This document shows, one piece after another, positions 8,880 through 32,000 of a stretch of DNA of 32,000 bases. This stretch comes from Candidatus Kuenenia stuttgartensis (lineage in GTDB: Bacteria; Planctomycetota; Brocadiia; Brocadiales; Brocadiaceae). The stretch spans positions 480,001-512,000 of the forward strand of contig NZ_LT934425.1 of the NCBI RefSeq assembly GCF_900232105.1, written 5' to 3'. Below the pieces are notes generated by a model. That model did no database searches, had not been told where the DNA came from, and saw nothing but the letters and a program-made list of their open reading frames with translations. The position numbers and the translations under genes were made by a program. Position 1 is the first letter of the stretch; each line of letters opens with the position of its first letter.

Positions 8880-8884
8880 TTTAT

Positions 8885-13063: not shown

Positions 13064-13067
13064 CCTA

Positions 13068-15079: not shown

Positions 15080-15107
15080 AGCACTTAAGACCTATTGTAC
15101 CTCACAA

Positions 15108-18057: not shown

Positions 18058-18282
18058 TGTAGAGAACAAAAAAAAGCCTTTATTTTTTTACTATCTCTTT
18101 CATTACTACAGGGATACTCCCGCTCCATTTTGCTTGTTTTGCTCATTCTTGCCCGTTTACATGAGAACCCTATCGTTTTTAACTTTCTTCTCCACTTATT
18201 GACGGGAGCTTTTGGCACAAATTCTTGATCCGCGTCTTTCGTAGGGTGACTTTGACGTTGCCGTGATAATCTCCCGAATACC

Positions 18283-18766: not shown

Positions 18767-19080
18767 CAGTTTTGTGGGTACAAATAATACAGAGACTTAT
18801 GACTTTTTTTCGTATGAAAAATGGCCATTTTGCTCGTCTACCTCTCATTATGTAAAAAACCCGGCAGGTCGACATGTAGTACTTAAACTGTCATCTCATG
18901 ACGGGATAACCTTCATTTCAATGTATCTAAATAGACCTGCAGAGACGTACGAACAGGTATTTACCCTAAGGTCGACAGGTTTTTTTATAATATTTAGCCA
19001 TCACGAAACACTTACTTATCCAAACAATGAAATACTTTTGTCGTATCATTGTATTCCAACAGTCAAAGCAAACCTAATAG
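18767..19080 (-). promoter_or_regulatory. Inferred CRISPR leader
   Basis: A 314-bp AT-rich non-coding stretch between the cas2 stop (19081) and the first repeat (18766). The position and orientation argument is given under the array. No promoter hexamers are called with confidence. Confidence 0.6.
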
Positions 19081-19347
19081 TCATAATATATTATCAACCG
19101 GTCTTTTGTCAAATCCAACAATCTCTTTATCCAGCCATTTTTCATTTCTTGATTTGAATACAATGAGTGAGTCCTTATCCTCCTCGTTCATGATCTTCTT
19201 TGCCTTTATCTTCAATTCTTCCAGTCTGGCTTCGGTAATTTCTCCCTCAAACACAGAATTTTGTATATGATGGAGGTAACCCCTGCAAAGCTTTAGCATC
19301 TTCGTGCATCGTTTCTGGTCCACATCGTACACAACAACAACGTACAT
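19081..19347 (-). CDS. cas2: CRISPR-associated endoribonuclease Cas2
   Basis: An 88-aa ORF starting MYVVVVYDV...QNSVFEG..., the typical Cas2 ferredoxin-fold start. An ATG start is preceded by GGAGAG. It lies adjacent to cas1 and the array. Confidence 0.9.
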   Translation of the reverse strand: MYVVVVYDVDQKRCTKMLKLCRGYLHHIQNSVFEGEITEARLEELKIKAKKIMNEEDKDSLIVFKSRNEKWLDKEIVGFDKRPVDNIL

Positions 19348-19359
19348 TGTTAATCTCTC

Positions 19360-19517
19360 CGTTCAAACAGATGAAACCGTTCAAGCCGGTTAAAGCCGTT
19401 TAAACCGCTTAAACCGTTTAAACCGTTTAAACCGCTTAAACCACTTAAACCGCTTAAACCACTTAAACCGCTTAAACCGCTTAAACCGCTTAAACCGCTT
19501 AAACCGTTCGAACGGTT
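19360..19517. repeat. 9-bp tandem repeat array a (about 17 units, CGYTTAAAC type) filling the cas1-cas2 gap
   Basis: Units read in register: CGTTCAAAC AGATGAAAC CGTTCAAGC ... (CGCTTAAAC/CACTTAAAC/CGTTTAAAC) x12 ... CGTTCGAAC. The array ends in the perfect palindrome AACCGTTCGAACGGTT. Confidence 0.9.
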
Positions 19518-19525
19518 ATGAAAAT

Positions 19526-20518
19526 TCACCACCAGATCTTAAATCCCTCATACCCTTGCTCACCAATCAGGTGTTTAACCAATTTATAACATTCCAGTCT
19601 TATAAGATACCGGTAAGAGACCTGCCTCTCAAGTTTCTTATGGCTGATAATTGTCTTCAGTTTCTCATCATATTCTTTAACAACGGTCTTTCTTCCCTTC
19701 TCATTAAGGTAACAGCAATTAACATCTGTCATAAAATCCTTCTCCGTAATCTGATGTCTGTTAAGTATGGTAAATATGGTTCTGTCGCTGAAAATAGGCT
19801 TAAAAACCTCCGCCATGTCGAGACTCAGGGAAAACCTCCGTTCACCCGGTTCATGGAGATAAGAGATCAGGGGATTTAACTGCGTATGGTATATTTCACC
19901 CAGACATGTCGTATAGACCATCGAGTTTAGATACGAGATCAAGGCATTAATCATATTGTCCGGAGGCTGCTTTACCCTGCGTTCAAATGCTATCTCCTGG
20001 TCAATAATGGTGGGCCACGCCTTGTAATACGTATTTCGGATGTTTCCTTCTATTCCCATCAACTCCTCCACGACCTCTGTTTTTTCGATCTGTGACCTGA
20101 AGCCTTCAATCGTACTGATATATTCATCCACTCCTTTTCCCCTGTTGCCATAATATCTCAGGTTCTTCAGGATATTGAAACTCGCTGCTTCGATAAACGC
20201 CCTTGCCAGGACAATTCTCTTCTGACGGCTCGTATAGTGGTTCACCTGCTTCACCAGGAGTTGCCCGGAGTTTAAGTATTCCCGCGGATAATAGCTGCCG
20301 GAATAATAACCATAGTAGTTGAATACATGCACCGGTATGCCTTTCTGCGCAAGATAATTAAAGAGTTTCGTATTGAAGTCAATCTCACCGAAAGCATAGA
20401 GGGCTTCTGTGTTCTCAATGGGTATTACGGCCTTAGAACCGTCTTCCTTTTCAAAGAAGATGGTATTTTCCTGTCGTTTCAAACGGCCGTTGTTAAAGAT
20501 GTAATAGTTCTGTTTCAT
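19526..20518 (-). CDS. cas1: CRISPR-associated endonuclease Cas1
   Basis: A 330-aa ORF. The N-terminus (YYIFNNGRLKRQENTIFFE...IPIENTEALYAFGEIDFNTKLFNYLAQKGIPVHVFNYYGYYSGSYYPRE) is characteristic of I-B-type Cas1. Confidence 0.92.
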   Translation of the reverse strand: MKQNYYIFNNGRLKRQENTIFFEKEDGSKAVIPIENTEALYAFGEIDFNTKLFNYLAQKGIPVHVFNYYGYYSGSYYPREYLNSGQLLVKQVNHYTSRQKRIVLARAFIEAASFNILKNLRYYGNRGKGVDEYISTIEGFRSQIEKTEVVEELMGIEGNIRNTYYKAWPTIIDQEIAFERRVKQPPDNMINALISYLNSMVYTTCLGEIYHTQLNPLISYLHEPGERRFSLSLDMAEVFKPIFSDRTIFTILNRHQITEKDFMTDVNCCYLNEKGRKTVVKEYDEKLKTIISHKKLERQVSYRYLIRLECYKLVKHLIGEQGYEGFKIWW

Positions 20519-20530
20519 AGTTTTAAAAAT

Positions 20531-20611
20531 AGTTTAAGCCGTTCAAACAGTTTCAACCGTTCAAGCAGAAAAACCATATCGGTTTAAACAGTTTGAACGG
20601 CTTAATCGGCG
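20531..20611. repeat. 9-bp repeat array b (about 9 units) in the cas4-cas1 gap, folding into a long hairpin
   Basis: The units are AGTTTAAGC CGTTCAAAC AGTTTCAAC CGTTCAAGC AGAAAAACC ATATCGGTT TAAACAGTT TGAACGGCT TAATCGGCG. The segment 20532-20558 is nearly perfectly complementary to 20581-20607. Confidence 0.8.
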
Positions 20612-20625
20612 TAGATTGTTCTTTA

Positions 20626-21138
20626 TTACACCCAGCACATATCCCCATAACTACAATTCTTGCACATCTTCATCCTTTGTATCGGCGGAGGTAATTCGGC
20701 TTCTACAAGCACTTTGATTTCGCTTACTATTGCATGAATCTTCTCATCATCTCCCGGTTCCAAAAACACGTCCAGGGTCTTTCTGAGCTTTGGATAATTA
20801 ATTTTACCCGTAATGCCTTCTACGCCCTTCTGTTTCAGATACCAGAGGTAATACTTCAACTGCCAGATATGCGGCTCTTCCACCTTGTCCGACTTCTTTA
20901 CCTCGTGAATGACCCTGTCTTTCCCGATGAAATCAATCTTGATAGTGCCGTCAATCTCGATCTCCTTATTCTCCCGTTCGTACGATGTCTCGTGGATCAG
21001 CTTACCGAGGTAGACCGCATCGCTGTTGTGCTCCATTTCAATATTTTTGGTAAAATACCAGAGCTTCTTCCTGCAGAGGAAGTAATAGTTAATCTGGGTG
21101 CCGGTGAAGCGGATAGATGTTTGTTCTGTAGTGTTCAT
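20626..21138 (-). CDS. cas4: CRISPR-associated exonuclease Cas4 (RecB-like, 4-Cys)
   Basis: A 170-aa ORF with an N-terminal Cys (YYFLCRKKLWY), a D...EVKK nuclease motif and the C-terminal cluster CKNCSYGDMC. Confidence 0.88.
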   Translation of the reverse strand: MNTTEQTSIRFTGTQINYYFLCRKKLWYFTKNIEMEHNSDAVYLGKLIHETSYERENKEIEIDGTIKIDFIGKDRVIHEVKKSDKVEEPHIWQLKYYLWYLKQKGVEGITGKINYPKLRKTLDVFLEPGDDEKIHAIVSEIKVLVEAELPPPIQRMKMCKNCSYGDMCWV

Positions 21139-21151
21139 TATTTATATCCAT

Positions 21152-21541
21152 TCATTCTTTCAATTTTCTCAATATACTGGCAAACTCACTTTTGTTAAGC
21201 TTTCCCGTTGAAAGGTCCAGCATAGCATCGTAGAGTTTCCCCTGAGAATCTGAAATGCTGATTCCATTAAGTTCGGGAAAAACCAGCGCAGATACCAGAG
21301 CGGTTCGCTTATTACCGTCAACAAAAGGATGGTTTTTACTGATGTGAAATGCATAAGCCACTGCCATTTCACAAATATCGTTATGCAAGTACTCACCATG
21401 AAAAGATGCGTGGGGCATTGCAATAGCTGAAGATAAGAGGTTTATATCCCTTATCCCCGGCAATCCTCCATACAATCTCATCTGATTGCTATGTATATCA
21501 ATGACTTCGGCAAGGGTCAGAAAAAGGATATCTTTCATCAT
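21152..21541 (-). CDS. doc: Doc (death-on-curing) / Fic-family toxin
   Basis: A 129-aa ORF carrying the Fic/Doc motif HPFVDGNKRTA. Its start overlaps the upstream antitoxin stop (ATGA at 21538-21541). Confidence 0.88.
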   Translation of the reverse strand: MMKDILFLTLAEVIDIHSNQMRLYGGLPGIRDINLLSSAIAMPHASFHGEYLHNDICEMAVAYAFHISKNHPFVDGNKRTALVSALVFPELNGISISDSQGKLYDAMLDLSTGKLNKSEFASILRKLKE

Positions 21542-21765
21542 TCAGCCAGCTTCTTAAGTGTTTTTTCGTGTTTTTTATTTATTTTCACTAAAGCCGCTCT
21601 AAACTTTTTATCTCTATCCTTGTCATGAACCGGAGAAATAATAAGATTTTTCCCGTCAGTGGTGATTTCAAGTGGTGTATTCATATCAACCTTGAGGATT
21701 TCCAGTATGGGTTTATCAATAATTAATGCTGCGCTGTTACCGTGTGGGACCAGATTTTTAAGCAT
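21538..21765 (-). CDS. AbrB/SpoVT/MazE-fold antitoxin partner of Doc
   Basis: A 75-aa ORF. The N-terminus (PHGNSAALIIDKPILEILKV) has the swapped-hairpin AbrB-type pattern. AGGAGG lies upstream of the ATG, and the gene overlaps doc by 4 nt. Confidence 0.75.
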   Translation of the reverse strand: MLKNLVPHGNSAALIIDKPILEILKVDMNTPLEITTDGKNLIISPVHDKDRDKKFRAALVKINKKHEKTLKKLAE

Positions 21766-21885
21766 ATTACCTCCTGAAATGTAGCATTTTGTAAATTTTT
21801 AATGCCACTAAGACACCAGGCATCAAAGAAAATACTGATGACTTAGTGACTGTATAGCAACCTCGAATTTTCTTAACGTAAAATT

Positions 21886-21924
21886 ATGTATATACATTGT
21901 ACTACCATAATATACTTCGTTCAA
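21886..21924 (-). promoter_or_regulatory. Candidate sigma70-type promoter plus palindromic operator for the antitoxin-doc(-cas4-cas1-cas2) unit
   Basis: On the minus strand, TTGAAC (21924-21919), 17 nt, then TACAAT (21901-21896). The perfect 12-nt palindrome ATGTATATACAT (21886-21897) abuts the -10. The site is about 130 nt upstream of the antitoxin ATG. Confidence 0.4.
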
Positions 21925-22156
21925 TATTTCTTCCTATTTCAGTGTCTCAAAATTATTTTTGACAGGATTCACGGGATAAGCAGGATATTTTAATCATGTT
22001 CATACTGTCCATCCCTGTTTTGTGAAATTCGTTTTTCTTAGTGTCCATTCGTGGCTAAACCCCTCGTCTTCAACTTTTGTATAGAGAAGATTCGTTGGTT
22101 CGTTGTCATTTAATCCTCCTCATCGGTGAGACGTACCAATTCATTTGTAATACCCC

Positions 22157-22918
22157 TCAAACAATTTTCTTATATTGTGTGAAATGTTTGCTGCTCTGGA
22201 CAAAACTATAAGGAATAACTGTTTTTACCAATATTCGATGTTCACCAAGCTTAACTGTCCCTGAGCCATAAGTACTTATACGATCAAAACCATCTTTGGC
22301 CTTACACAATACTTCCCCAAAATCATCCAGGTATTGAACCCATTGAAACTTACCGGTCAACAATCGCTCCTCCGGCTGTGGAAGTGTGTATCCTTCGGGA
22401 AGATTACCTTTGCAAATCGAATCCTTAATATATTGCCAGAAAGAGCCTCTCTTTCCTATGCAATTAATGTGACTACCTACCCTTCTTATCAAAGATACTG
22501 CATCTCCTGAAAGACCATTAATCCCTATCGCCACTTTCAGTTCAGCATCGGTATAAAAGCAAAACTCACGATAAGCAATGGTGGGAACATAGAAGCCTTT
22601 CGGGGCATCCCTTTCTTCCTGACGAATTTTTATAAAGGTATTCTGCACGATACAACCTGCCGGTGGGCTAAATCTTATTTCGCAGCCTTTAATAAGATCA
22701 AATACCTGCCGTGCCTTGATTTCGGCATTATTTTCATCAAAGCCCCTAAAGCAAGCATCAATCAAGGTCATCTTAAAAGCATAGGGAGTTGGAATCAAAA
22801 GGGTCTTTCCGCCCTTGCTTGTAGCATGGGTCATTCGAAGGGAAAAAAGGCTCACCGGTAAATAGCTTAGAATGAGCCATTTCCCTATTCCCCGGTCAAT
22901 TAATTTTTCCTCAACCAT
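22157..22918 (-). CDS. cas5: Cas5 (Cascade subunit)
   Basis: Positioned after cas7. The N-terminal pattern is FSLRMTHATSKGGKTLLIPTPYAFKMTLIDA (F.R...P.P....G/A). The preferred ATG at 22918 is preceded by GGAGG at 5-nt spacing and lies 1 nt after the cas7 stop. The track ORF starts at ATG 22930. Confidence 0.7.
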   Translation of the reverse strand: MVEEKLIDRGIGKWLILSYLPVSLFSLRMTHATSKGGKTLLIPTPYAFKMTLIDACFRGFDENNAEIKARQVFDLIKGCEIRFSPPAGCIVQNTFIKIRQEERDAPKGFYVPTIAYREFCFYTDAELKVAIGINGLSGDAVSLIRRVGSHINCIGKRGSFWQYIKDSICKGNLPEGYTLPQPEERLLTGKFQWVQYLDDFGEVLCKAKDGFDRISTYGSGTVKLGEHRILVKTVIPYSFVQSSKHFTQYKKIV

Positions 22919-22919
22919 G

Positions 22920-23903
22920 TTAGCCTCCATAAGGTTGAACCTTGCATATTATATCTGCCATTACCCCGCTAAATGCACCAAGCCCGTCAAATGGTGTAAC
23001 TGCTATCGGGTCGCCGGTTGTGGTCCTATTCAGATTACCGGCAATCTTTTTTATCTCGTCTCGATAATTTGAATTCAGTCCGCTAAGAACGGGGGCAGGC
23101 AACGTGCTTGTAGATGTGGCTATAATGCCAGTGAAATCAAGGATATGCGGGTGTTGCGTATTGCGGTGCGCGCCGGTTGGTTTGATAAAGGTATTGAGCA
23201 CACTCTTCAAAAGGGCTTTTATCCTGGCCTGCCTATCAATACCATCCACATAAGCAAGCGTGATATCATTCCGGCCAACCTTATAAAGGTCTACATTCAC
23301 TACTACTGCGTATTGACCGGAAGATGCGGGACGGTGAAAGATATTCTGCCCAAGATTTTCTCCTGCACCGGAGCCTTTTCCACGTCCTTCAGGCACATAT
23401 TTGGCGTGGAAGTATGATTCTGTCCGTGTATTATCAGGACATCCCACAACCCAGCCAAACTCAATGGCTGATTTGCGGGAAAGTGATTTTGTCCCGGCCC
23501 ATCCTGTAAGCATTATCCCTTCGCAATCATCAATGATACATTTAAAGAGTATTTTATCTAAGATAAAAGGATCCTTTTTATTCTGTCTTTCAGCTTCCGT
23601 ATATTCATTTAAAGACATGACATCTTTCTCGTACTCTGCATCAAATTTAATTCTATTTGCGTTGAAAATATCGCAGCCCTTGCATAAGGGAAGGTTATTT
23701 GATTTTGCCTCCATAAACAAATGTTCTGCCTGAATATGCTTGAACATGTCACCGGAAACGGCATTGACCGTATGATTCTTGCCTGTTGCATCCACAATTT
23801 CAACCATCCGCGTCATCATGGTGTTTCCTTCGCTGCCTTCATTGTTAAGGGCGTGCATGTTCATCGTTACAATGCCTGAAATACTTAAAGAGTGCAGTTT
23901 CAT
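22920..23903 (-). CDS. cas7: Cas7 (Cst2/DevR/Csa2-like backbone subunit)
   Basis: A 327-aa ORF. The N-terminal motif ISGIVTMNMHALNNEGSEGN is the hallmark of DevR/Cst2-type Cas7. AAGGAGGG lies upstream of the ATG. Confidence 0.85.
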   Translation of the reverse strand: MKLHSLSISGIVTMNMHALNNEGSEGNTMMTRMVEIVDATGKNHTVNAVSGDMFKHIQAEHLFMEAKSNNLPLCKGCDIFNANRIKFDAEYEKDVMSLNEYTEAERQNKKDPFILDKILFKCIIDDCEGIMLTGWAGTKSLSRKSAIEFGWVVGCPDNTRTESYFHAKYVPEGRGKGSGAGENLGQNIFHRPASSGQYAVVVNVDLYKVGRNDITLAYVDGIDRQARIKALLKSVLNTFIKPTGAHRNTQHPHILDFTGIIATSTSTLPAPVLSGLNSNYRDEIKKIAGNLNRTTTGDPIAVTPFDGLGAFSGVMADIICKVQPYGG

Positions 23904-23905
23904 AA

Positions 23906-25612
23906 TTATTTACCCTCCTTGTTTGTTATCGTTGGATTATCGGTTTCAATCTTTGGCGCTCTTGCGTAGCCATAGGCCAAAAGAAGCATACCGACTAGTT
24001 CACTCTGGTCTTTCCCGTTATTTTCAATAAGAGATATTACCTGATCAAGGTCTTCTTTTGAAACGGTATGATATTTACCTTCAAGCCTGTTTGTAACTTC
24101 CCAGTTATAATCCTGAACAAACTCGGCCAACACCGGGACGAATTCTTTTGCCCCACCTTTAATTTTTTGCTTCCATTTTTGGGCTAGACCGAAACGTACA
24201 TCCCATTTCTTGTTGTTTTGTTGCTGTAACCACAGGGCTGTTATAGTAGCATTTCTAATAGCCCAGGCAACACTTAAGAATCCCGTATTTTCTACAATCT
24301 CTTTCATTCCATATCCCCTTTCAAAAAGTATCGTTAGATTTTCAGTAGAAAATTCTTTTACCCCTTCTTTTTTACCTCGTTTTTCCATAGTATGGACTGC
24401 AAATTTCGCCAAAAAATCAAGCAGGTCTGACACGCTACCAGTTGTAAGCCATTTTCTGTATTGCTGGAGAATGGGAACATCGCCGGAATGGGTTTCATTC
24501 AGAGAGCCAAGACATCCAGGTTTTTTCTGAGCATAGTCTCCGATATGCTCCCTAATTATTTCGATAAACGCAATTGCATCATCTTTATTTTCAATGCGAA
24601 ACCAGTTTGGAATAGGCAAAAATGCATCATTCATCAAGGCTGCCGCTGTTCCCATGCTTTTGAAATATGCTTGCCGCAATCCTCTTATAACCTCAGCAGG
24701 TCTACGTCCGCGCAAACTGATCTTTCCCATAGTATCTTGTACAACATCCGAATGTATTATCAGTTCTTCAGCCAGACGCAATGTGGCCTCTATGTCAAGC
24801 CTTATTCCACCCCACAGCCTCAGATCGAGAAGTTTTCCCCTGAGCATAGACAGCGCCTTCGGCCCTATTTCGGCAGGCTCAATGACAAAGAGTTTAAAAT
24901 CGTCGCCATTACGGTAAGGGAGCATTGCAGCAGAAGCCCCTCTAAATTTCATCCACTCGGCGAAAGGTTCTACGACTTCACTATTGATAGCGCTAGGTGA
25001 TTTGTAAATGGTCTTGGTTGCATGCAAACCTTTTCCTGATGAAGGATTAAAAAACTGGCTGTTGCTTACTTTAGGTATTTCAACCTGTTCAAGGCGATCC
25101 AACCGATTGAGGCGTTCAAGCCATACTAGTTCAGATTGAACCCATTTAAGGACTTTTTCAGGATTTTGAATCACCCATAGATAGACGTCTTTATCGGAAC
25201 TCCAGCCTTTTCGCATTGACTCAAGGATTGCCGAAGGACCGTATTCGCGATTAACGCTTTCAACTGGAGATAAGCCTTGCTCTTCAAGTGCTTTGTTTAA
25301 TGCTTCTTTTTTCTTTTTACTACCCTTTTCCTTTGCTTTTACCCGGCCTTGTTCCTCCTCATAATCCAGCACCATAGTACCCTGTGGTTTTTCCTTTTCC
25401 TTGCTTTTTCGCCAAATGTAGTAAAACCCGGGAGACGGTGGTCTCCATTGTACATCAGGCACATCCGATGAATACTCAATTTTAAAATGAGTTCCCCTAT
25501 CTTGGATAATTGTTCCAACCCCGGCTACTTCTTCAAGTAGGCCTGCGGTGCCTATGGCTCTTAAGGAATCGGCATAAGTCCCCGTTCCTTTTGGAATTTC
25601 CACAACCTTCAT
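23906..25612 (-). CDS. cas8: Large Cascade subunit (Cas8-like)
   Basis: Its size (568 aa from ATG 25612) and its position between cas3 and cas7 support the call. ATG 25612 is preceded by GGAGGAGAGG and overlaps the cas3 stop (ATGA). The track ORF extends to GTG 25684, inside cas3. I recognised no family-specific motif. Confidence 0.6.
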   Translation of the reverse strand: MKVVEIPKGTGTYADSLRAIGTAGLLEEVAGVGTIIQDRGTHFKIEYSSDVPDVQWRPPSPGFYYIWRKSKEKEKPQGTMVLDYEEEQGRVKAKEKGSKKKKEALNKALEEQGLSPVESVNREYGPSAILESMRKGWSSDKDVYLWVIQNPEKVLKWVQSELVWLERLNRLDRLEQVEIPKVSNSQFFNPSSGKGLHATKTIYKSPSAINSEVVEPFAEWMKFRGASAAMLPYRNGDDFKLFVIEPAEIGPKALSMLRGKLLDLRLWGGIRLDIEATLRLAEELIIHSDVVQDTMGKISLRGRRPAEVIRGLRQAYFKSMGTAAALMNDAFLPIPNWFRIENKDDAIAFIEIIREHIGDYAQKKPGCLGSLNETHSGDVPILQQYRKWLTTGSVSDLLDFLAKFAVHTMEKRGKKEGVKEFSTENLTILFERGYGMKEIVENTGFLSVAWAIRNATITALWLQQQNNKKWDVRFGLAQKWKQKIKGGAKEFVPVLAEFVQDYNWEVTNRLEGKYHTVSKEDLDQVISLIENNGKDQSELVGMLLLAYGYARAPKIETDNPTITNKEGK

Positions 25613-28035
25613 CCCTCTCCTCCTTTCTGGCTTCTTTGGTCTGCCAGCCTGAGCCTTCTTACGAGAAATACATAAAGAGGCCACAACCCGGTATCTTCGC
25701 TGTTTGGACCACTAAAAATTAAAAGATCGTCTTGAAAACTACGTTGGGTTAGTTTATCGGGGTTGTCAGTCAATGCAATGCCCTCAATAGAGGATGGCAA
25801 TGTTTCACTGACCCATTTCTTTGTGTCGTTAATAAGCCTAAAGTCTTCCAGCGATGCCGTAAATGCCCCATGATGTCTTGCTATAGCTGTCCAGGTTACA
25901 ACTGCATTAACACCAAAATTATCTCTCAACCACCCTGCCACTGAATATGCGCCTTCAGAAGCATGAGGCGGCTGTTTAGGAAACTTTTTCTTATTTTCAA
26001 AATCCATGTCTGGCGCGTAATCTGAATGAGCAAGGGGCTCGCCAGTCAACATCTGAGGGTTCTTGTGCTGCTGCCACTTTCTTACAGCCTCCTGCCACTT
26101 CATGGAGAGCTTTCCCACATCGTGTAGGGCGCAACAGACATCAGCCAGTGTTTCCAATTGGTTGGCTGACATTTTATATCGTTCGGCCAGTCGTGTTGCT
26201 GCATAGCTATAAAAAGGCTTCATTGCCCGGCACGCTGCAACTACTCTTTGAACATGCTCCCGGTAAGTTTCATAACTGATTTTGTACCGGGGAATAAGCG
26301 GCCTATCGAAGTATCTGATCTCTTCGTGACACCCCTTTACACCGATTTTCAAGCCAACGTCAGGGGAATAAGAAGCAAACTCCGGATTTATAACGACAAG
26401 CCATGAAGCGTTTCTGATCTGGTCTTTTGAAGTAATTCGTTCCCATCCGAAGGATGTCTCGGTTTCGTCTATAATATTGGCATTTTCAATAGGATACCAC
26501 GCAACCGTTTCCCCAAAGTCACGGCATTCTTCAAAAAACGGAGAAAGCTTATAAAGGCTCGAACGGGGAACTGACAGCATCCTCGGCCATTTGTTTTTAT
26601 CAAATCTCAAAACTGAAGGGTCGTTACAGATAACCACATTTATGGAAGCCACGTCCCGCACCAATTCTCTGACGGCAACTTCGTTGCGTCCGTCCATAGC
26701 CTCGTGAATCTTGGTTTTTAAAGAGTATTGATTTTGCCGGTAGGATTCCAGATGCCTTTCCTCAATGTTCGAATGCACCTTATCAAGTCTTTCAAGCTCT
26801 GAGTTAAAATCAAGGATTGCGCCATCCGACGGCAGCCGTTCCAGAACCTCTCTGGTACCTGAAATCAAGGCCTTATGGTCGTTCTCTCGATAGGGACCAA
26901 AATCAGGCAGGCCTTTTTCATTTGTTAGTAATTCATAAATCCAGACAGTTCCAATGCCACGCACACCTTCATATCTTGCACAACGCCCGGCACGCTGTAT
27001 AATGCTGTTCAGAGGGGCAATTTCTGTATGCAGGTTGTCCGCAGAAATATCTATACCTGCCTCAACAACCTGCGTGGTTACCAGGATTACATTCGTTTTA
27101 GTGGCTTCTTTTCCAAACCAACCCTTGAGTTTATCTTCTACCTTTTTTCGATCTTCTGAGTAAAACCTGCTATGAAGCAAGAAAACAGTGGTGTTGCTAC
27201 CTTCCAGGCGTTTCGCCATTTCTTCGTAAATATTCTGCGCCCTCGTAACGGAGTTGAGGATAATGATAGAACGGTTACCATTATGATGATCAAGGATATC
27301 GTTAATCGTGAGTGGTCTGTTTATCCAGCGGTACGCACGTTTTTTTTCTTTGTGAGATGGCAAACTCATTACTTCATCAGGAGTTAGACTGACAAACTGT
27401 CCTCCCAGTATCTCTTTTAATAAATCCAGACTCTTCGTCGTAAGTGTAGCCGTCATGATGACAAACTGGGAAAATGGTTTAAGCCTGTCCAGCATTTCTA
27501 CGGCCGTTCTCATTGCTTTATCGGACTCCAAAAGGTGGAATTCATCAAATACAATCAAACTCCCAAGCAATGCTCCGGCATTGATATTCCCAACTCTCTG
27601 CGGAAGAGAGACAGGACAATTAAGGTAAGAGGAAAGGCACTGGTCAACGGTTGTAAATATTACATCGCCTTCAAAAAAGGGATCGTCCTTTTGTTCACCG
27701 GTTTGTATTGTGATTACAAGTTCGCCTTTTTCACCCCTACGGGCATTTGGATCACACACTACCCTGAAACCACTTTTGCAACACGCTACCGTTTCAGCGT
27801 AAAGGGTAGTAGCTAATGTTCGAAGCGGCAAGACATAAATTAATCTATCAACAAACGTCGTGCCTTGTTTTTTTGCCCAAAGATACGGCAAAATAGCAGC
27901 CCATGTTTTCCCGCTGCCAGTAGGAGCGCGGAGAAAAATATTTCTGCCATCAAGAAGACGTTGTGCAACTTCTTCCTGATAAGGATAGGGGGCAAGTCCT
28001 TTATTGCTCATTAATTGATCGAAAAGTATTCTCAA
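25609..28035 (-). CDS. cas3: Cas3 helicase-nuclease with a C-terminal HD domain
   Basis: SF2 helicase motifs occur in N-to-C order: APTGSGKT, VFDEFH, MTATL, TQVVEAGIDIS, QRAGRCAR. HD-type motifs follow only after about residue 600 (ALHDVGK, LAHSDY, HASEGA, ARHHGAF). The start is either TTG 28035 (overlapping the abiEii stop) or ATG 28011. Confidence 0.9.
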   Translation of the reverse strand: MRILFDQLMSNKGLAPYPYQEEVAQRLLDGRNIFLRAPTGSGKTWAAILPYLWAKKQGTTFVDRLIYVLPLRTLATTLYAETVACCKSGFRVVCDPNARRGEKGELVITIQTGEQKDDPFFEGDVIFTTVDQCLSSYLNCPVSLPQRVGNINAGALLGSLIVFDEFHLLESDKAMRTAVEMLDRLKPFSQFVIMTATLTTKSLDLLKEILGGQFVSLTPDEVMSLPSHKEKKRAYRWINRPLTINDILDHHNGNRSIIILNSVTRAQNIYEEMAKRLEGSNTTVFLLHSRFYSEDRKKVEDKLKGWFGKEATKTNVILVTTQVVEAGIDISADNLHTEIAPLNSIIQRAGRCARYEGVRGIGTVWIYELLTNEKGLPDFGPYRENDHKALISGTREVLERLPSDGAILDFNSELERLDKVHSNIEERHLESYRQNQYSLKTKIHEAMDGRNEVAVRELVRDVASINVVICNDPSVLRFDKNKWPRMLSVPRSSLYKLSPFFEECRDFGETVAWYPIENANIIDETETSFGWERITSKDQIRNASWLVVINPEFASYSPDVGLKIGVKGCHEEIRYFDRPLIPRYKISYETYREHVQRVVAACRAMKPFYSYAATRLAERYKMSANQLETLADVCCALHDVGKLSMKWQEAVRKWQQHKNPQMLTGEPLAHSDYAPDMDFENKKKFPKQPPHASEGAYSVAGWLRDNFGVNAVVTWTAIARHHGAFTASLEDFRLINDTKKWVSETLPSSIEGIALTDNPDKLTQRSFQDDLLIFSGPNSEDTGLWPLYVFLVRRLRLADQRSQKGGEG

Positions 28036-28871
28036 GAAAAAATCTTTCCCAAAGTGTTTTTTAATTCATCTAAAACCCGGTCACTATCTGGTAACTCTCT
28101 CAAATGGCTACCTAAAGATGGTTTCCAATTTTCTTTTACTTGTTCCACCCCATGAAAAAAAGAATCAATTCTCTTGAATTCAATTTCTTTGAGTTTGCAT
28201 TTCTTTTCAAAAAGTAATGCAATTTCCTTAAATCTTAAACTCTCTGAACAAAAAATGGACAAATACCACAGGTCGTAATAATCGCGGGGCCATCCCCGCT
28301 GCAAAATGGTACGAAGCTTTTCCGCATATATCTCTTCGATACTATAACTTTGAATTTTTGCCGTGATATCTTTTGAATCAGAGTATAAATGGAAAATATT
28401 CTTTGAAACTGGAGGGGACAATATTGGTTCTCTTAGTGAAATATCGATCTTAATAGATGTCCTCCATCTTTCAGGAGGAACTATCTTGTCCCTATGTTTA
28501 GCTCCCCAAAAAGGGATTTTGAATTCATATCCCATTAACCGATCATTAGATTGCATATTTTTAATCTGAATAGGCCCAAATAAAATTCCTGCATTTTGGT
28601 AAATTATGTCATGTATTATCTCAAGTTCTTTTTTTATTTTTTCTCGCTCAACCTCTATTAGGCCAGAAAAATCAAGGTCTTCAGAAAATCGGAAATGTTT
28701 GAAATAAAGCTTGCGCAGGCAAGTTCCACCTTTAAAACGAAAGCACTCTTTAAAAAGACTGCGATTGTATAGCCCATTAAGATAGTGCCCAAGCACCCAG
28801 TCTTTATCTACTGTTTCTATAGGAACTCCCCATTCTACTGATTTTTTACTTAACTCCCTAAAAGGAATCAT
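28032..28871 (-). CDS. abiEii: AbiEii/AbiGii-family nucleotidyltransferase toxin (DUF1814)
   Basis: A 279-aa ORF. The N-terminal region (IETVDKDWVLGHYL...FKGGTCLRKLYFKHFRFSEDLDFSG) matches the conserved AbiEii NTase motifs. The ATG overlaps the abiEi stop by 1 nt (TAATG). Confidence 0.88.
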   Translation of the reverse strand: MIPFRELSKKSVEWGVPIETVDKDWVLGHYLNGLYNRSLFKECFRFKGGTCLRKLYFKHFRFSEDLDFSGLIEVEREKIKKELEIIHDIIYQNAGILFGPIQIKNMQSNDRLMGYEFKIPFWGAKHRDKIVPPERWRTSIKIDISLREPILSPPVSKNIFHLYSDSKDITAKIQSYSIEEIYAEKLRTILQRGWPRDYYDLWYLSIFCSESLRFKEIALLFEKKCKLKEIEFKRIDSFFHGVEQVKENWKPSLGSHLRELPDSDRVLDELKNTLGKIFS

Positions 28872-29668
28872 TATAAAGCAGTCCTTGCCATAGCATATAT
28901 CTCTGATTCTGTATGATTAACGATCAATCGCCACTTTTTCAGATGTTTACCCTCAGCCGAAGACAGAGGGTCGAGTAACGTATACTTAGGCAATAGAACC
29001 TGCGCAGCATTTGCCCGAAAATCTTCGAACCCTTTTAATTCTAATATTTCTGATAAATAGCCTAACCGCTTGATAAGTGTATTGTTCTCCATTTTTAACG
29101 CATGGTGCCATAATTTTCCCTTATCTAATCTTTCGTGCGATATAAAGAGACCTTTGACAGCCTCTGTAAAACCCCCAGCATATTCTGGTAAATCGAAACA
29201 ATCAACAATGGTCTTTTCCATATCAGTGATAAAATAAAAATCCCGACCAACCCATTCTTTTCTAATTCCAAAAAATTTATGCGGGCTTATAGTTATGAAT
29301 TGGTACCGAACATTGAGTATTTCCTTATTCTGCTTTCTCTTGCTCGTTTGAATATGAACAATGTTAGAAATTTGTTCTGTTAGCCCATAATAATTCAACG
29401 CTGAAGAATATGCTATCGCCGATGGTTCTATTAGTCTTGTCCCGATTAAGAACGAATCTACATCCCTATTGGAAAGGATATACTTTCCACGCTCTACCTG
29501 AGTAATCAATCCCTTTCGTTTAAGGTTCATTAACAGAGTTGTGCAATTCTTAAATAACCTAAAGGCTTTTATTTCTTTTGTTGAGAAAATAATGTTTCCT
29601 TTTTCAGAAAGGAAATTAAACAAATTTTTTTCTTCTACTGATATCCCTTGGGTATAAACACGTCTCAT
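28871..29668 (-). CDS. abiEi: AbiEi-family antitoxin / transcriptional regulator
   Basis: A 265-aa ORF directly upstream of and overlapping abiEii. It has an N-terminal wHTH-like segment (FSTKEIKAF...MNLKRKGLITQVERGKYIL) and a size typical of AbiEi. Confidence 0.75.
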   Translation of the reverse strand: MRRVYTQGISVEEKNLFNFLSEKGNIIFSTKEIKAFRLFKNCTTLLMNLKRKGLITQVERGKYILSNRDVDSFLIGTRLIEPSAIAYSSALNYYGLTEQISNIVHIQTSKRKQNKEILNVRYQFITISPHKFFGIRKEWVGRDFYFITDMEKTIVDCFDLPEYAGGFTEAVKGLFISHERLDKGKLWHHALKMENNTLIKRLGYLSEILELKGFEDFRANAAQVLLPKYTLLDPLSSAEGKHLKKWRLIVNHTESEIYAMARTAL

Positions 29669-29694
29669 AAGTTACCTTTTATGTAAACATTCCA

Positions 29695-29741
29695 TTGACA
29701 AAAACATAATTTAAATTACACAAAAGGGTATATTTTGTCAA
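29695..29741 (-). promoter_or_regulatory. Candidate abiE promoter with flanking inverted-repeat operator
   Basis: On the minus strand, TTGACA (29741-29736), 17 nt, then TAATTT (29718-29713). The inverted repeat TTGACAAAA (29695-29703) / TTTTGTCAA (29733-29741) brackets the -10. A further TTGACA lies at 29761-29756. The abiEi ATG at 29668 is about 45 nt downstream. Confidence 0.5.
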
Positions 29742-29837
29742 ACCGCCCTCTTTCTTGTCAACTCTTTTTTTGCGCCATCCACCCACGGATTTCCTGTCCA
29801 ATTGAATAATGGAACGATTATCTCCAATAAAAATAAA

Positions 29838-30020
29838 CGTTCAAACAGATAAAACCGTTTAAGCAGTTCAAGCCGATTAAGCCGTTCAAGCAGAAAAAGC
29901 AGTTCAAACTGTTTAAACCGAGGAAACCGTTCAAGCCGAGTAAACCGTTCAAGCCGTTCAAGCTGAAAAAGCGGTTTAAGCCGTTTGAACGGTTTAAACT
30001 GATTAAGCGAATTAAACTGC
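29838..30020. repeat. 9-bp repeat array c (about 20 units) between abiEi and the four-helix-bundle gene
   Basis: Strictly 9-periodic: CGTTCAAAC AGATAAAAC CGTTTAAGC AGTTCAAGC CGATTAAGC CGTTCAAGC AGAAAAAGC ... GGTTTAAAC TGATTAAGC GAATTAAAC. The last units supply the final codons and TAA stop of ORF 30012..30467. Confidence 0.9.
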
Positions 30021-30467
30021 TGAATCCTTTTTTGTATTCATTTTATTCATGATTTCATCCAGTGTCTCTTTCACACTCTTTCTCTTCGGCATCTTGTACT
30101 TGGATCCTTTGTACCTGCTGCCTTTCAGGTGATTCATGAAGTTGTTAATCATTATTGAGATACGCTTGCATTGTTCAATGAGGGGTTTTAATTCATTCTG
30201 GTCAATATAGTTCTGATCTCCTGCTATATACAACTGGCATCGTACCTCACCACAAGAACCTTTAGCAATTGATAAAAACTGTATGAATTCCTGGTTGCCG
30301 CCCCTTTCATAGCCTTCGGCTATGTTAGACATGATGGAGACAGATGCACGCCGGATCTGGTCTCTGAGGCCGTAGTCTTTTGAGAAGGTACCGTCTTTTG
30401 TAATCCCGTAAATCTTGTTTGTTAGTTCTCTTGCTGACTTCCAAACTTCAAGGTCTTCGAAGTACAT
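30012..30467 (-). CDS. Four-helix-bundle protein (TIGR02436 / 23S rRNA intervening-sequence protein family)
   Basis: A 151-aa ORF. The sequence (DLEVWKSARELTNKIY...LRDQIRRASVSIMSNIAEGYERGGNQEFIQFLSIAKGSCGEVRCQLYIA) is the canonical pattern of this family. AGGAGG lies before the ATG. Confidence 0.85.
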   Translation of the reverse strand: MYFEDLEVWKSARELTNKIYGITKDGTFSKDYGLRDQIRRASVSIMSNIAEGYERGGNQEFIQFLSIAKGSCGEVRCQLYIAGDQNYIDQNELKPLIEQCKRISIMINNFMNHLKGSRYKGSKYKMPKRKSVKETLDEIMNKMNTKKDSAV

Positions 30468-30486
30468 GTCTGCCTCCTTTTAGAAA

Positions 30487-30612
30487 ATTAAGCCGGTTAA
30501 AAATGGTTTAAGCAGTTTAAGCAGTTTAAACCGCTTAGACCGTTCAATCCGATTAAACAGTTTGAGCTGTTCAAGCTGTTTGAATGGTTTCCACAGTTTG
30601 AACCACTTCCAC
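30487..30612. repeat. 9-bp repeat array d (about 14 degenerate units), spanning the cas6 / four-helix-bundle gap and the last 14 codons of cas6
   Basis: The units are GGTTTAAGC AGTTTAAGC AGTTTAAAC CGCTTAGAC CGTTCAATC CGATTAAAC AGTTTGAGC TGTTCAAGC TGTTTGAAT GGTTTCCAC AGTTTGAAC. The cas6 tail VVQTVETIQTA and its stop are encoded within the array. Confidence 0.8.
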
Positions 30613-31548
30613 ATACCCACACCCCATGCTATTATTTTGCCCAAAGCCGCATTCCAGACCGATCCTGATTAATTCTTTTGGGCCGGTTACGGTAAAGGGC
30701 TGTAATGTCCCTTTTATATGGATGGGATTCACACTGCCGTCCAATCCCTTCTTGAAGACGGTAAACTGTTTCACAGACTTCCCTTTTGTTTCAAGAAAAC
30801 AAAATTTCAGAGTTTCTCCCTGATACGGTTTACCAAAGAGGGTCTCGTACTTATGCATAAGGTTTTGATTCAAGAGTTCTTCGTATCCGTTATCACCCGG
30901 GAACAAATAAATATCCTGCTGACCCGGAGGCATGGGTTTTTTAATGAAGAGGGGAGATTCTAAGGGTTTTAATGATAAACCGTTTAAACCGTTTAAGCCG
31001 TTTAAGCCGTTTAAGCCGTTTAAGCCGTTTAAGCCGTTTAAGCCGTTTGAACTGTTTACGCTGTTTGAACTGCTTGAACCCGTTGTTGTCTCCAACGGAT
31101 CCGTCAGGGTTTCTACCCGACATACGCTGAATGTTTGTTTGCCAAGCCGCACCTCCTGGCCCTCTCCGAATATACCCTCTATCAAGTGTTGAATGAATTT
31201 ATCTACGGGTGATGCAATCTGAAAGGAAAGGGTGAAGGGGGAAAGATGAGAGGATTTAAAGGAGAAACCGTTTAAGCCGTTCAAGCCGAGAAAACGGTTT
31301 AAACCGTTTAAACCGTTTAAGCGGTTTGAACGGATGATTTTGATAGGACAGTAGAATGATATACCTGAAAAGACAAAGAGCTTAAACCGCTTGTCTTTTT
31401 TATAGGCGAAGCCCTGCTGATGAAGCCATTGGGCATAGTCAGGGTTTGACATGGACAGGAAACTATAGATGATGGCCTGTATCTGGTGTTGATAGTTGAA
31501 GTCGATGATGCCGGATTTATCTGCCGTGAAGGTTATTTTTATCCTCAT
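30571..31548 (-). CDS. cas6: Cas6 endoribonuclease carrying repeat-encoded insertions
   Basis: It starts MRIKITFTADK... (the track ORF starts 22 codons earlier, at ATG 31614). It has the C-terminal glycine-rich loop GLECGFGQNNSMGCGY. Two GLN-rich inserts are encoded by 9-bp arrays. Confidence 0.8.
   Translation of the reverse strand: MRIKITFTADKSGIIDFNYQHQIQAIIYSFLSMSNPDYAQWLHQQGFAYKKDKRFKLFVFSGISFYCPIKIIRSNRLNGLNGLNRFLGLNGLNGFSFKSSHLSPFTLSFQIASPVDKFIQHLIEGIFGEGQEVRLGKQTFSVCRVETLTDPLETTTGSSSSNSVNSSNGLNGLNGLNGLNGLNGLNGLNGLSLKPLESPLFIKKPMPPGQQDIYLFPGDNGYEELLNQNLMHKYETLFGKPYQGETLKFCFLETKGKSVKQFTVFKKGLDGSVNPIHIKGTLQPFTVTGPKELIRIGLECGFGQNNSMGCGYVEVVQTVETIQTA
30977..31084. repeat. 9-bp repeat array e (12 units) inside cas6, in frame
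   Basis: AAACCGTTT x2, AAGCCGTTT x6, then GAACTGTTT ACGCTGTTT GAACTGCTT GAACCCGTT. On the minus strand this translates to ...SSSSNSVNSSNGLNGLNGLNGLNGLNGLNGLS... Confidence 0.9.
31264..31335. repeat. 9-bp repeat array f (8 units) inside cas6, in frame
   Basis: GAAACCGTT TAAGCCGTT CAAGCCGAG AAAACGGTT TAAACCGTT TAAACCGTT TAAGCGGTT TGAACGGAT. This translates to ...RSNRLNGLNGLNRFLGLNGLNGF... Confidence 0.85.
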
Positions 31549-32000
31549 AATTAATGACACCAAAACTTGCTCTTGGCTTGTATAGAGATTACAGGAAATA
31601 GACAGGAAAATCATTTTTCAAGGGTAGCTGGCTAAGTATAATAGCACTTTACAGGAACAAATCAATACAAAATCATGTTGCTACGTCTTAGAATAAATGC
31701 TCCAAAAATGCCCAATTAGTCTCAGAATATTTGAGTCTAATACCCAGCAAATGATTTGAAAAATCTTACCCAGCTACCCCGCCTTTTTTTTATCCTGCGT
31801 AAGTATTTCACTTGATTTTTTGTTCACGTTAAGAAAAATACATCGTTTACCCCGTTAGAAAGAAGTTCCGTCCGTAAGGCGGAGTAAAGCCTCATTAAAT
31901 AGTTTGGAAGGGGTTAAAACCACTTCCAAACTTCCTAACGGCGGTTTACTTCCCAGTTCCCCGTTTTCACGAGGACAAGTTTTGTAAGATTTTTCCGGAA

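Follow-up and report, generated by a model that had tools for sequence, protein, structure and literature searches.

Tandem 9-bp arrays in the cas cluster of Candidatus Kuenenia stuttgartiensis as probable arms of an S23p cassette akin to rRNA intervening sequences

The cas cluster of Ca. Kuenenia stuttgartiensis contains six arrays of the 9-mer NGYTTRAAC between positions 19359 and 31333 of the window (the whole stretch of 32 000 nucleotides analysed here), which raises the question of what this repeat is and how it came to lie among cas genes. The original prediction was that it is either an expanding, hairpin-prone minisatellite that travelled with or targets the cas locus, or a functional RNA or DNA element acting between cas genes. 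The reading that we consider probable is that the arrays are the hairpin-forming arms, and ORF-less leftovers, of a PF05635 (S23p) cassette akin to the intervening sequences (IVSs) of 23S rRNA, lodged between cas6 and abiE/cas3 in the polycistronic cas operon. The positions of the arrays within the cluster were re-derived and essentially confirm those first proposed; the gene calls (Cas6, PF05635, AbiEi/AbiEii, Cas3, Cas8a-like, Cas7, Cas5a-like, Cas4, Cas1 and Cas2) were also checked. The features of interest are as follows.

Array a, 19359–19515, minus strand: ORF-less, fills the cas1/cas2 gap; four head units and 13 near-perfect units.
Array b, 20530–20609, minus strand: ORF-less, in the cas4/cas1 gap; a hairpin whose two arms (3–4 units, opposite orientations) enclose an 11-nt loop.
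Possible remnant, 25085–25120, minus strand: four degenerate units inside cas8, LERLNRLDRLEQ; uncertain.
Array c, 29837–30019, minus strand: putative downstream cassette arm of ~19 units in the gap between the four-helix-bundle gene and abiEi.
Four-helix-bundle gene (S23p, '23S rRNA intervening sequence protein'; 151 residues), 30012–30467, minus strand: putative cassette core.
Array d, 30487–30612 (clear part 30507–30602, degenerate ends), minus strand: putative upstream cassette arm in the gap between cas6 and the four-helix-bundle gene.
cas6, 30571–31614, minus strand: directly upstream of the cassette; hosts arrays e and f and the start of array d.
Array e, 30980–31078, minus strand: in-frame cas6 insert of 11 units, translated (NGL)n.
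Array f, 31268–31333, minus strand: in-frame insert of 6–7 units in the Cas6 N-terminal domain, translated RLNGLNGLNRFLGLNGLNG.

The four intergenic arrays thus occupy the gaps to which they had been assigned. The exact sequence CGYTTAARC occurs 22 times in the window, always within 19397–31323 (shuffled sequences gave 1.27 ± 1.29 copies, maximum 5), and is unrelated to the CRISPR repeat proper of this locus, which is a 29-mer. The head that had been noticed in arrays a, b and c, CGTTCAAACAG(A/T)..AACCGTT, is indeed common to all three, and arrays a and c also share a 3' terminal motif, ATCTGTTTGAAC. Array c starts at the stop codon of the four-helix-bundle gene and ends, with the terminal sequence TTTATTTTTATT, at a T-rich run before the abiEi promoter region. 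Array d begins within the final ~14 codons of cas6, which encode the tail VVQTVETIQTA, and stops ~20 nt before the ribosome-binding site of the four-helix-bundle gene. The predicted cas6 inserts and tail are thus both present. Cas6 is matched by the PF01881/PF21350 and Cas6b models in three interrupted stretches, and array e falls in the linker joining the two RAMP domains, between blocks that align with the solved Cas6 structure 5YI6. As one unit equals three codons, arrays within cas6 would persist only in the stop-free G-L-N frame. The proposed remnant inside cas8 fared less well: three of its four units match with two or fewer mismatches and the segment exceeds its counterpart in Cas8 homologues by 5 + 3 = 8 residues, but the match is weak and one as good occurs by chance in the 428 kb of Kuenenia sequence sampled elsewhere.

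A comparison of unit number between Kuenenia strains, which had been suggested as a check, bears out the description of the repeat as an expanding and contracting, hairpin-prone minisatellite. Array a is the most variable (7, 13, 14, 15, 18, 26 or 27 units), followed over narrower ranges by arrays c (17 or 19), d (10 or 11), e (8–11) and f (6 or 7). These five have the head-to-tail units and strain-variable number of a VNTR; array b has the same unit number in all strains compared. The arrays probably lengthen and shorten by slipped-strand mispairing. Their strain-to-strain change in copy number resembles that of simple-sequence contingency loci, from which they differ in a unit length that is a multiple of three; a change in copy number therefore leaves the frame intact and should not switch cas6 on or off.

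Within Kuenenia the arrays are, as far as sampled, restricted to the cas cluster. None was found in window positions 1–19000, in agreement with the absence that had been noticed in 9.8 kb at the left, or in 428 kb of Kuenenia sequence from elsewhere, about 350 kb of it distinct, a sample amounting to about 8% of the genome and biased towards IS flanks. The unit density is 80-fold higher in the cas cluster than in this sampled remainder; the similar genome-wide density that would have marked the repeat as generic was thus not seen. The hundreds of dispersed palindrome copies typical of REP/BIME elements are likewise not observed, with zero arrays in the ~350 kb of distinct sequence outside the cas locus. 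The ORF-less 9-mer arrays found elsewhere do resemble REP/BIME elements in being short hairpins in transcribed gaps; the Kuenenia arrays, however, consist of 9-mers in tandem and not of one imperfect palindrome, and no RAYT transposase is linked to them.

The gene between arrays c and d is matched by PF05635 (E = 4.2e-40) and TIGR02436 (E = 6.4e-38), and is thus an S23p-type IVS ORF. Its product is homologous to XCC0516, for which a structure has been solved (2GSC; E = 1.8e-15). Diversity-generating retroelements have an accessory protein, Avd, of the same Pfam family. Like the Kuenenia protein it is a four-helix bundle; it is pentameric and binds nucleic acids (PMC10053308), but neither a reverse transcriptase nor a template/variable repeat pair lies near the Kuenenia gene. 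Viral contigs contained no relatives of the Kuenenia subfamily. The gene is intact here, and in CSTR1-type strains a 148-bp internal deletion leaves an 82-residue stump. Because it is truncated in several strains, the protein appears to be dispensable for array maintenance.

The tie between repeat and gene is not peculiar to Kuenenia. Among metagenomic relatives of the four-helix-bundle gene (75 loci, 69 of them distinct, 42–100% identity), where a flank could be evaluated, tandem repeats are present within 250 bp upstream in 69 of 70 cases and downstream in 60 of 61, and nearly all belong to the GTTTRAAC family. Around the 75 loci there are 11.0 and 12.9 units per kb at distances up to 300 bp, but 0.29 and 0.04 per kb at distances above 2 kb. 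Most of these arrays have at least 4–5 units, and the units have drifted where the proteins are more divergent (the 8-mer TTGAACTN; the 7-mers AACCTTG and AAGTTTA). Three further PF05635 genes in Kuenenia have flanking arrays of their own (GCAAAGA ×31 and its complement; GTTGAGTAA; TGGTTTCTC/CCACCTA), the cyanobacterial PF05635 genes examined have heptamer flanks, and all 12 plasmid-borne PF05635 genes from cultured bacteria are flanked by 7–8-mer arrays, with reverse-complementary sides in ten. One of these plasmid cassettes, from Azospirillum, lies inside an LSU rRNA gene and is a genuine 23S rRNA IVS, its ORF flanked by two heptamer arrays that are complementary to each other. Separately, Kuenenia has dispersed heptamer families, TTTCGTA among them, that have no PF05635 neighbours.

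The unit had been described as quasi-palindromic, and folding predictions agree. Array a as sense RNA is predicted to form a near-perfect hairpin (−74.4 kcal/mol, z = −12; antisense −34.3), and structure is also predicted for array b (−34.4 kcal/mol, z = −7.9), array d as sense RNA (z = −4.8) and the array f hairpin (z = −5.8). For array e, structure is predicted in the antisense (z = −6.6) but not in the sense RNA (z = −0.5). In the MFE structure of an 856-nt transcript, arrays c and d form 61 cross pairs (8.7 when the flanks are shuffled); their predicted duplex has −55 kcal/mol (z = −3.4), although the two are more alike as direct (−74.7 kcal/mol) than as inverted repeats (−55.0 kcal/mol). 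Among related cassettes, 24 of 56 have a flank–flank duplex with z < −3, compared with two of 86 control ORFs. Predicted stem-forming flanks, as in an IVS, are therefore present, but local folding of the arms is equally good in some loci: at several, each arm folds on itself in the MFE structure with zero cross pairs. Nor is a stem universal, since the flanks of the Pseudanabaena and Kuenenia L144 cassettes are direct repeats instead of inverted ones. Terminator-like sites were predicted in arrays d, f and a, but their total (16) is not above that in shuffled sequences (11.5 ± 2.5), and a search of the whole window with Rfam returned zero matches at the gathering score, rRNA included.

These observations suggest how the cassette might be borne by its host operon. 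In the cas transcript the quasi-palindromic arms would fold on themselves or pair across the ~450-nt ORF, bracketing the cassette with double-stranded RNA, and RNase III would then probably excise or insulate it, by analogy with the rRNA IVSs. The operon could tolerate the cassette because excision or insulation would leave the flanking cistrons translatable. The ORF-less arrays in the cas1/cas2 and cas4/cas1 gaps and the cas6 inserts would be local derivatives, which may have arisen when arrays recombined or underwent gene conversion with one another, or when the ORF was lost from between two arms. The distance of arrays a and b from the cassette, 9.5–10.6 kb, is beyond the usual reach of arrays in related loci, and their putative cassette origin is read solely from the shared units and the shared terminal motif.

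The parent class, the S23p-bearing IVS, is already known; the statement that no repeat of the Kuenenia kind has been described stands as far as literature searches go. The ORF-bearing 23S rRNA IVSs of Coxiella, Leptospira, Xanthomonas and Brucella have in common with the Kuenenia cassette a homologous PF05635/TIGR02436 ORF, bracketing repeats able to form a stem, adjoining short tandem repeats of strain-variable number, decay of the ORF in some strains and a sporadic, horizontally transferred distribution. In Coxiella, strain-variable tandem heptamers (GACAGAT ×2–3) lie upstream of S23p, the ORF is decaying and the IVS is excised by RNase III (PMC4990558), an excision that for the Kuenenia cassette is a prediction. 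The Kuenenia cassette differs in its site, which is an mRNA operon (between cas6 and abiE/cas3, with no rRNA gene) and not helix 25 or 45 of 23S rRNA, in its quasi-palindromic 9-mer unit and long arms of up to 19 units, and in the extra ORF-less arrays in neighbouring gaps and in frame in cas6.

About a quarter to a third of the related cassettes lie in cas operons, typically directly after cas6, which is the upstream neighbour in 12 of 51; the neighbours as a whole include cas6, cas3, WYL, AbiE and restriction genes and extend to CobU/CobT. Between Planctomycetota and Nitrospirota MAGs the four-helix-bundle protein is 67–79% identical and the adjacent Cas6 25%. We found no empty-site pair and no evident transposition or integration enzyme, and mobility of the cassette is thus inferred from this phylogenetic incongruence.

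The STRR heptamers of cyanobacteria and the TAACTGA repeats of Beggiatoaceae (reportedly the work of Mazel and co-workers in 1990 and of MacGregor in 2015) are intergenic tandem arrays of 7–9-nt units, often directly upstream of start codons and patchy across phyla. The Kuenenia 9-mer is likewise arranged in intergenic tandem arrays and patchy across phyla; it differs from STRRs in its period of 9 rather than 7, in being quasi-palindromic and in its explicit link to one gene family. We raise tentatively, as a doubtful extension of the cassette reading, that PF05635/S23p genes with their cognate repeat arms form a widespread, unrecognized mobile class of 'operon intervening sequences'. Its members would insert between and occasionally within genes and be neutralized at the RNA level. 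They would markedly favour CRISPR-cas operons: in the type I loci of anammox bacteria, Nitrospirota and cyanobacteria the site would be the one that follows cas6, and in a type III-B locus the junction of cmr2 with cmr3. Their toroidal protein might recognize the repeats of its own cassette, or might interact with Cas6 or with the processing of crRNA. If this were true, the enigmatic STRR-type 7–9-nt tandem repeats would gain one source.

A different reading of the same linkage is that the arrays are iterons, (GGUUUAAAC)n or (GGTTTAAAC)n, bound as RNA, ssDNA or dsDNA by a toroidal four-helix-bundle protein, with one 7–9-nt unit per ring subunit, much as TRAP binds triplet repeats, and a cognate unit for each paralogue; by binding, the protein would regulate its own gene or the neighbouring ones. 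A homopentameric toroid is reported for the homologue XCC0516 (Lin 2006, as cited in PMC4990558), arrays usually have at least 4–5 units, each of the PF05635 genes examined is flanked by a unit sequence of its own, and the drift of the units parallels the divergence of the protein. Linked sequences co-diverge regardless, however, so this co-variation is not diagnostic. As the upstream and downstream arrays are mostly reverse complements, a reader of single-stranded RNA would find its motif on one side only. Moreover, the arrays persist and still vary in strains with the 82-residue truncated product, and Coxiella S23p is apparently untranslated (PMC4990558). We therefore regard the iteron reading as unlikely.

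The cassette reading also has to be weighed against the functional element of the original prediction, in which the arrays are intercistronic RNA hairpins selected to process, stabilize or attenuate cas mRNA and the four-helix-bundle gene is a bystander. In its favour are the restriction of the sampled Kuenenia arrays to the cas cluster, the frequency of related cassettes in cas loci, and the far greater structure of intergenic array a as sense than as antisense RNA while coding array e is unstructured as sense. The proposal that the repeat travels with cas loci is itself upheld in other genomes: Ca. Scalindua rubra has a three-unit array in the same cas1/cas2 gap, and Brocadia and one Nitrospirota MAG have the 9-mer in and beside cas6. 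The Scalindua cas4/cas1 gap, however, holds a hairpin built from a different repeat, a 7-mer, and the array–gene–array module also occurs outside cas loci. ORF-less hairpin arrays of the same 9-mer adjoin enolase, nitrogenase, tRNA-synthetase and similar genes in Brocadia, Nitrospirota and others (median length 45 nt, median z = −5.1), in 23 co-directional, ten convergent and two divergent gaps. Unit density peaks at the four-helix-bundle gene, which had been listed just as a neighbour, and not at cas junctions, and copy number varies four-fold between strains. A cas-specific function is accordingly quite improbable. A cas-specific or CRISPR-like repeat was also considered and rejected, as the arrays have no spacers and occur by housekeeping genes and by four-helix-bundle genes outside cas loci.

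That the arrays are a generic, functionless microsatellite unrelated to cas or to the four-helix-bundle gene would fit the abundance of short tandem repeats in Kuenenia (260 reported) and its dispersed heptamer families, but is very improbable given the 80-fold local enrichment, the two-sided tie to one gene family at 75 loci with steep decay over distance, and the conservation of the module across phyla.

The six 9-bp tandem arrays that the original prediction placed in the cas cluster were all recovered by Tandem Repeats Finder, direct reading and our own unit scan, at the following positions.

19359-19515, minus strand: array a, cas1/cas2 gap
20530-20609, minus strand: array b, cas4/cas1 gap
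29837-30019, minus strand: array c, gap between the four-helix-bundle gene and abiEi
30507-30602, minus strand: array d, gap between cas6 and the four-helix-bundle gene
30980-31078, minus strand: array e, cas6 insert
31268-31333, minus strand: array f, cas6 insert

The exact motif CGYTTAARC occurs 22 times in the window (1.27 expected), and positions 1-19000 contain no array. The common head of arrays a, b and c was confirmed by direct reading, as were the location of arrays in four intergenic gaps and their in-frame reading within cas6; the supposed remnant of the repeat inside cas8 is a weak case. The surrounding genes are as follows.

30571-31614, minus strand: cas6
30012-30467, minus strand: PF05635 four-helix-bundle gene
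28871-29668, minus strand: abiEi
28032-28871, minus strand: abiEii
25609-28035, minus strand: cas3
23906-25684, minus strand: cas8 (Cas8a-like)
22920-23903, minus strand: cas7
22157-22930, minus strand: cas5
21152-21765, minus strand: phd/doc
20626-21138, minus strand: cas4
19526-20518, minus strand: cas1
19081-19347, minus strand: cas2

The Cas1 protein of the window is identical to that of strain CSTR1 (CP049055.1) and to copies encoded by contigs from several further Kuenenia assemblies. Comparison between strains, proposed earlier as a check, showed that unit number varies and that the arrays are variable-number repeats: across Kuenenia assemblies array a has 7, 13, 14, 15, 18, 26 or 27 units, array c has 17 or 19, and the cas6 inserts have 8-11 and 6-7. 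The length differences are always whole 9-bp units, so that cas6 remains in frame. An exact-protein look-up of the window cas6 product gave no match, which is explained by an array length specific to the strain. Both Kuenenia inserts fall between blocks that can be aligned to a solved Cas6 and therefore lie in loop or linker regions. Separately, a stop-free (GLS/GLN)n frame (19350-19532, minus strand) runs through array a, opening at a GTG that overlaps the stop codon of cas1 and ending 3 nt short of the cas2 start; gene callers turn it into a protein of 60-102 aa, the length of which follows the array. It is probably an artefact, or alternatively could couple the translation of cas1 and cas2.

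The gene between arrays d and c encodes a 151-aa protein of the S23p (23S rRNA intervening-sequence protein) family that matches the Xanthomonas structure 2GSC with E = 2e-15. A metagenome contig search with an alignment of four close relatives returned 75 loci (69 distinct, 42-100% identity), and tandem repeats were present within 250 bp upstream of the gene in 69 of 70 evaluable loci and within 250 bp downstream in 60 of 61. Nearly all of the units are GGTTTAAAC / CGGTTTGAA / TTGAACGGC. The upstream array stops about 30-40 nt 5' of the start codon and the downstream array begins 1-20 nt past the stop; within 300 bp of the gene the units number 11.0 per kb on the upstream side and 12.9 per kb on the downstream side, compared with 0.29 and 0.04 per kb, respectively, at more than 2 kb. 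More divergent proteins have drifted units (8-mers TTGAACTN; 7-mers AACCTTG and AAGTTTA).

The same design extends beyond these close relatives. Flanking 7-8-mer arrays accompany each of 12 plasmid PF05635 genes from cultured bacteria (Nostoc, Calothrix, Aulosira, Stanieria, Pseudanabaena, Anabaena, Picosynechococcus, Geminocystis, Riemerella and Azospirillum), the two flanks being reverse-complementary in ten. The one from Azospirillum is located within an LSU rRNA gene and is thus a classical 23S intervening sequence. Three Kuenenia paralogues have the same repeat-ORF-repeat design with unrelated units, one of them with GCAAAGA x31 upstream and its complement downstream. The paralogues on CP049055.1 (L144 13272-13539 and 20008-20525; L145 14455-15351) are located in polysaccharide-synthesis clusters, each with its own tandem arrays of 7- or 9-bp units on its flanks, and one downstream array is apparently split by an IS insertion (17817-17875 and 20008-20062).

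Since the early 1990s, intervening sequences that carry S23p have been known, as far as we are aware, only as oddities of 23S rRNA genes, and we know of no function for their ORF. That of Coxiella has tandem heptamers upstream of a decaying S23p ORF, in a strain-dependent number, and is excised by RNase III (PMC4990558). The Kuenenia locus resembles it in having strain-variable short tandem repeats beside an S23p ORF that is decaying in some strains. In the freely accessible literature we found no link between PF05635/S23p and flanking tandem repeats beyond these heptamers and no paper generalizing the repeat-ORF-repeat design. The window has no Rfam match, the four-helix-bundle protein is not among the defence components of PADLOC and viral contigs contained no relatives of its subfamily.

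A genome-collection scan for three consecutive CMGYTYAAR units (one genome per species; Kuenenia is not among the matches listed) gave at least 120 matches, which provide contexts rather than a per-genome census. About half of the matches listed are unrelated coding repeats of high-GC bacteria (CAGCTCAAG, CCGCTCAAG). The heterogeneous 9-mer arrays among them come from Brocadia, Scalindua, other Brocadiaceae, Nitrospirota, Nitrospinota, Desulfobulbus, Syntrophorhabdus and Binatia MAGs. Most of these 9-mer arrays, among the matches listed, occur singly as short hairpins (median length 45 nt; median z = -5.1) positioned after genes, in 23 co-directional, 10 convergent and two divergent gaps, and the neighbours of these solo arrays are ordinary genes (enolase, nitrogenase, tRNA synthetases, ABC transporters). 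A 9-mer family specific to cas genes, as originally suggested, is thereby contradicted, and a cas-specific regulatory role of the arrays has become improbable. Multi-array loci are exceptional among the matches listed and carry homologues of the window cas6 and four-helix-bundle genes: in Brocadia pituitae, cas6 contains three arrays and the four-helix-bundle gene has one on either side, in a Nitrospirota MAG cas6 again contains arrays and the four-helix-bundle gene again has one on either side, and a Thermodesulfovibrionales MAG has the four-helix-bundle gene with one array per side. Scalindua rubra has a three-unit array in the cas1/cas2 gap, as in Kuenenia. When other array-derived ORFs were sought in the protein database with a composite of the repeat peptides (GLN/PFK/LKR/RLN), the matches were unrelated low-complexity proteins and included no Kuenenia locus. 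The cas4/cas1 gap of Ca. Scalindua rubra (L048 5590-5710), equivalent to that occupied by the 9-mer hairpin of array b, contains an ORF-less hairpin with complementary heptamer arrays CACAGAG / CTCTGTG as arms (-64.7 kcal/mol, z = -11.6).

Within Kuenenia, we sampled 20 loci of about 21 kb around two multicopy IS transposases that interrupt the CRISPR array (428 kb, of which about 350 kb is distinct, or roughly 8% of the genome). This DNA contained no array, nor did the 9 kb beyond cas6, and exact units occur at 0.021 per kb against a density of 1.7 per kb for the cas cluster. In the Kuenenia DNA sampled, the family thus does not extend outside the cas locus; the similar genome-wide density that would mark a generic repeat was not seen in this sample, and a meaningless microsatellite is a very improbable explanation. 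Other short tandem repeats were observed. At 4180-4439, the space separating two PA14-domain genes is filled by heptamer arrays (GCTCATG x28 and CAGCTAT x9), with no adjoining PF05635 gene; the region is predicted to fold strongly as RNA (z = -7.0), and in other strains the two genes are only about 129 bp apart. TTTCGTA heptamers, with AAATCCG/GAAATCC nearby, are dispersed over several unrelated loci without a PF05635 gene (window 893-1116; L131 1580-2038; L143 13753-13793; L151 18615-18645), so not every Kuenenia short tandem repeat belongs to a cassette of this type.

Folding was predicted for the array RNAs. The sense RNA of array a is highly structured (-74.4 kcal/mol, z = -12), followed by arrays b (z = -7.9) and d (z = -4.8); the long cas6 insert is unstructured as sense RNA (z = -0.5) but structured as antisense (z = -6.6). 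In the MFE structure of an 856-nt transcript from the end of cas6 to the start of abiE, arrays d and c pair across the ORF, with 61 cross pairs compared with 8.7 for shuffled flanks. A flank-to-flank duplex with z < -3 against shuffles was obtained for 24 of 56 cassettes (ORF plus repeat arms) compared with two of 86 control ORFs; at some loci each arm folds locally in the MFE structure, and in some the flanks are direct, not inverted. For cassette flanks, the sense RNA is predicted to fold better than the antisense RNA (upstream p = 3e-6, downstream p = 1e-3). The bias has the same direction but is smaller in control regions and is absent from solo arrays of other genomes; as a modelled property it is only suggestive of RNA-level selection.

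The cassette recurs beside cas genes. Homologues of window cas or toxin-antitoxin proteins are present in 24 of the 75 metagenomic loci. The immediate upstream neighbour is Cas6 in 12 of 51 (others are WYL, AbiEii, HEPN and integrase genes), and the downstream neighbour is Cas3 in 5-8 of 45, a Cas8-type protein in three and a restriction enzyme in three; the neighbours can also be a housekeeping pair, for example CobU/CobT. Of the 12 plasmid genes, three lie within cas operons (cas6-4hb-cas4 in Pseudanabaena and Anabaena sp. 90, cmr2-4hb-cmr3 in Picosynechococcus, where 4hb is the four-helix-bundle gene). Planctomycetota and Nitrospirota MAGs share 67-79% identity in the cassette protein but only 25% in the adjacent Cas6, which indicates that the module moves independently of its neighbours. 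The insert positions in Cas6 differ between Nitrospirota and Kuenenia/Brocadia, so these inserts arose more than once. The cyanobacterial type I-D-like loci (Anabaena sp. 90 pANA02, L242 1114-1414, 1927-1956 and 2590-2619; Pseudanabaena, L234) have a 300-bp heptamer array upstream in cas6-4hb-cas4 and complementary copies in the next gap (cas4/cas1d), a parallel to the spread of arrays along the Kuenenia operon.

Taken together, these comparisons favour, with some confidence, the interpretation that the arrays are the repeat arms of an S23p-type, intervening-sequence-like cassette within the cas operon, accompanied by ORF-less derivatives inside cas6 and in gaps close by. Array length would change by slippage, the cassette transcript may be processed by RNase III, solo arrays could arise by recombination between arms and the cassette would itself be mobile. 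The main rival is that a toroidal four-helix-bundle protein reads its cognate repeats, for example (GGUUUAAAC)n; a pentameric toroid is reported for the Xanthomonas homologue (PMC4990558). In CSTR1-type strains a 148-bp internal frame-breaking deletion leaves an 82-aa product (L001-L004, L009 and L010, about 213-520, corresponding to window 30012-30467, where the gene is intact), and the arrays on either side persist. Maintenance of the arrays thus seems not to require the protein, and we consider the rival unlikely, if less so than the cas-specific role. Three other candidates were rejected: integron attC sites (there is no integrase, arrays lie inside cas6 and the toxin-antitoxin modules of the operon are not bounded by arrays), a CRISPR-like mini-array (no spacers) and frameshift phase variation (the unit is 9 bp).

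On the cassette interpretation, the S23p module is found here within protein-coding operons, repeatedly CRISPR-cas loci of several phyla, and its strain-variable arms can enter the cas6 reading frame without destroying it. We propose as a general rule that PF05635 genes lie between cognate 7-9-nt arrays, which are usually complementary; if true, some of the heptamer and nonamer repeats so far unexplained in cyanobacteria, anammox bacteria and Nitrospirota would have a testable origin. Such a rule would also provide a handle on S23p function and a new example of how operons tolerate selfish cassettes. In practice the arrays serve as Kuenenia strain markers, and they cause assembly and annotation artefacts (spurious 60-102-aa 'genes' and variable Cas6 lengths).

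The CRISPR array (9976-18766) has 51 identical 29-bp repeats (GTTTCAATTCCTTATAGGTGCAATGAGAC); three IS insertions, whose transposases lie at 10643-11746, 13141-14877 and 16299-17627, divide it into four blocks. This layout agrees with the published account of MBR1, with four CRISPR blocks within 8.8 kb at about 12 kb from cas6; CSTR1 and other strains have a shorter array and fewer IS copies. Upstream of cas6 (31622-31995) are several inverted repeats, including a 33-nt imperfect palindrome (31883-31950) and 15-nt arms (31622-31636 / 31765-31779), which could represent a promoter or leader region, or else a further small element. In the interval from array c to abiEi (29700-29790, minus strand), the motif TTGACAA recurs and there is a promoter-like site, TTGACA-18-CAAAAT with TG; as judged from sequence, this would be consistent with an autoregulated AbiE promoter.
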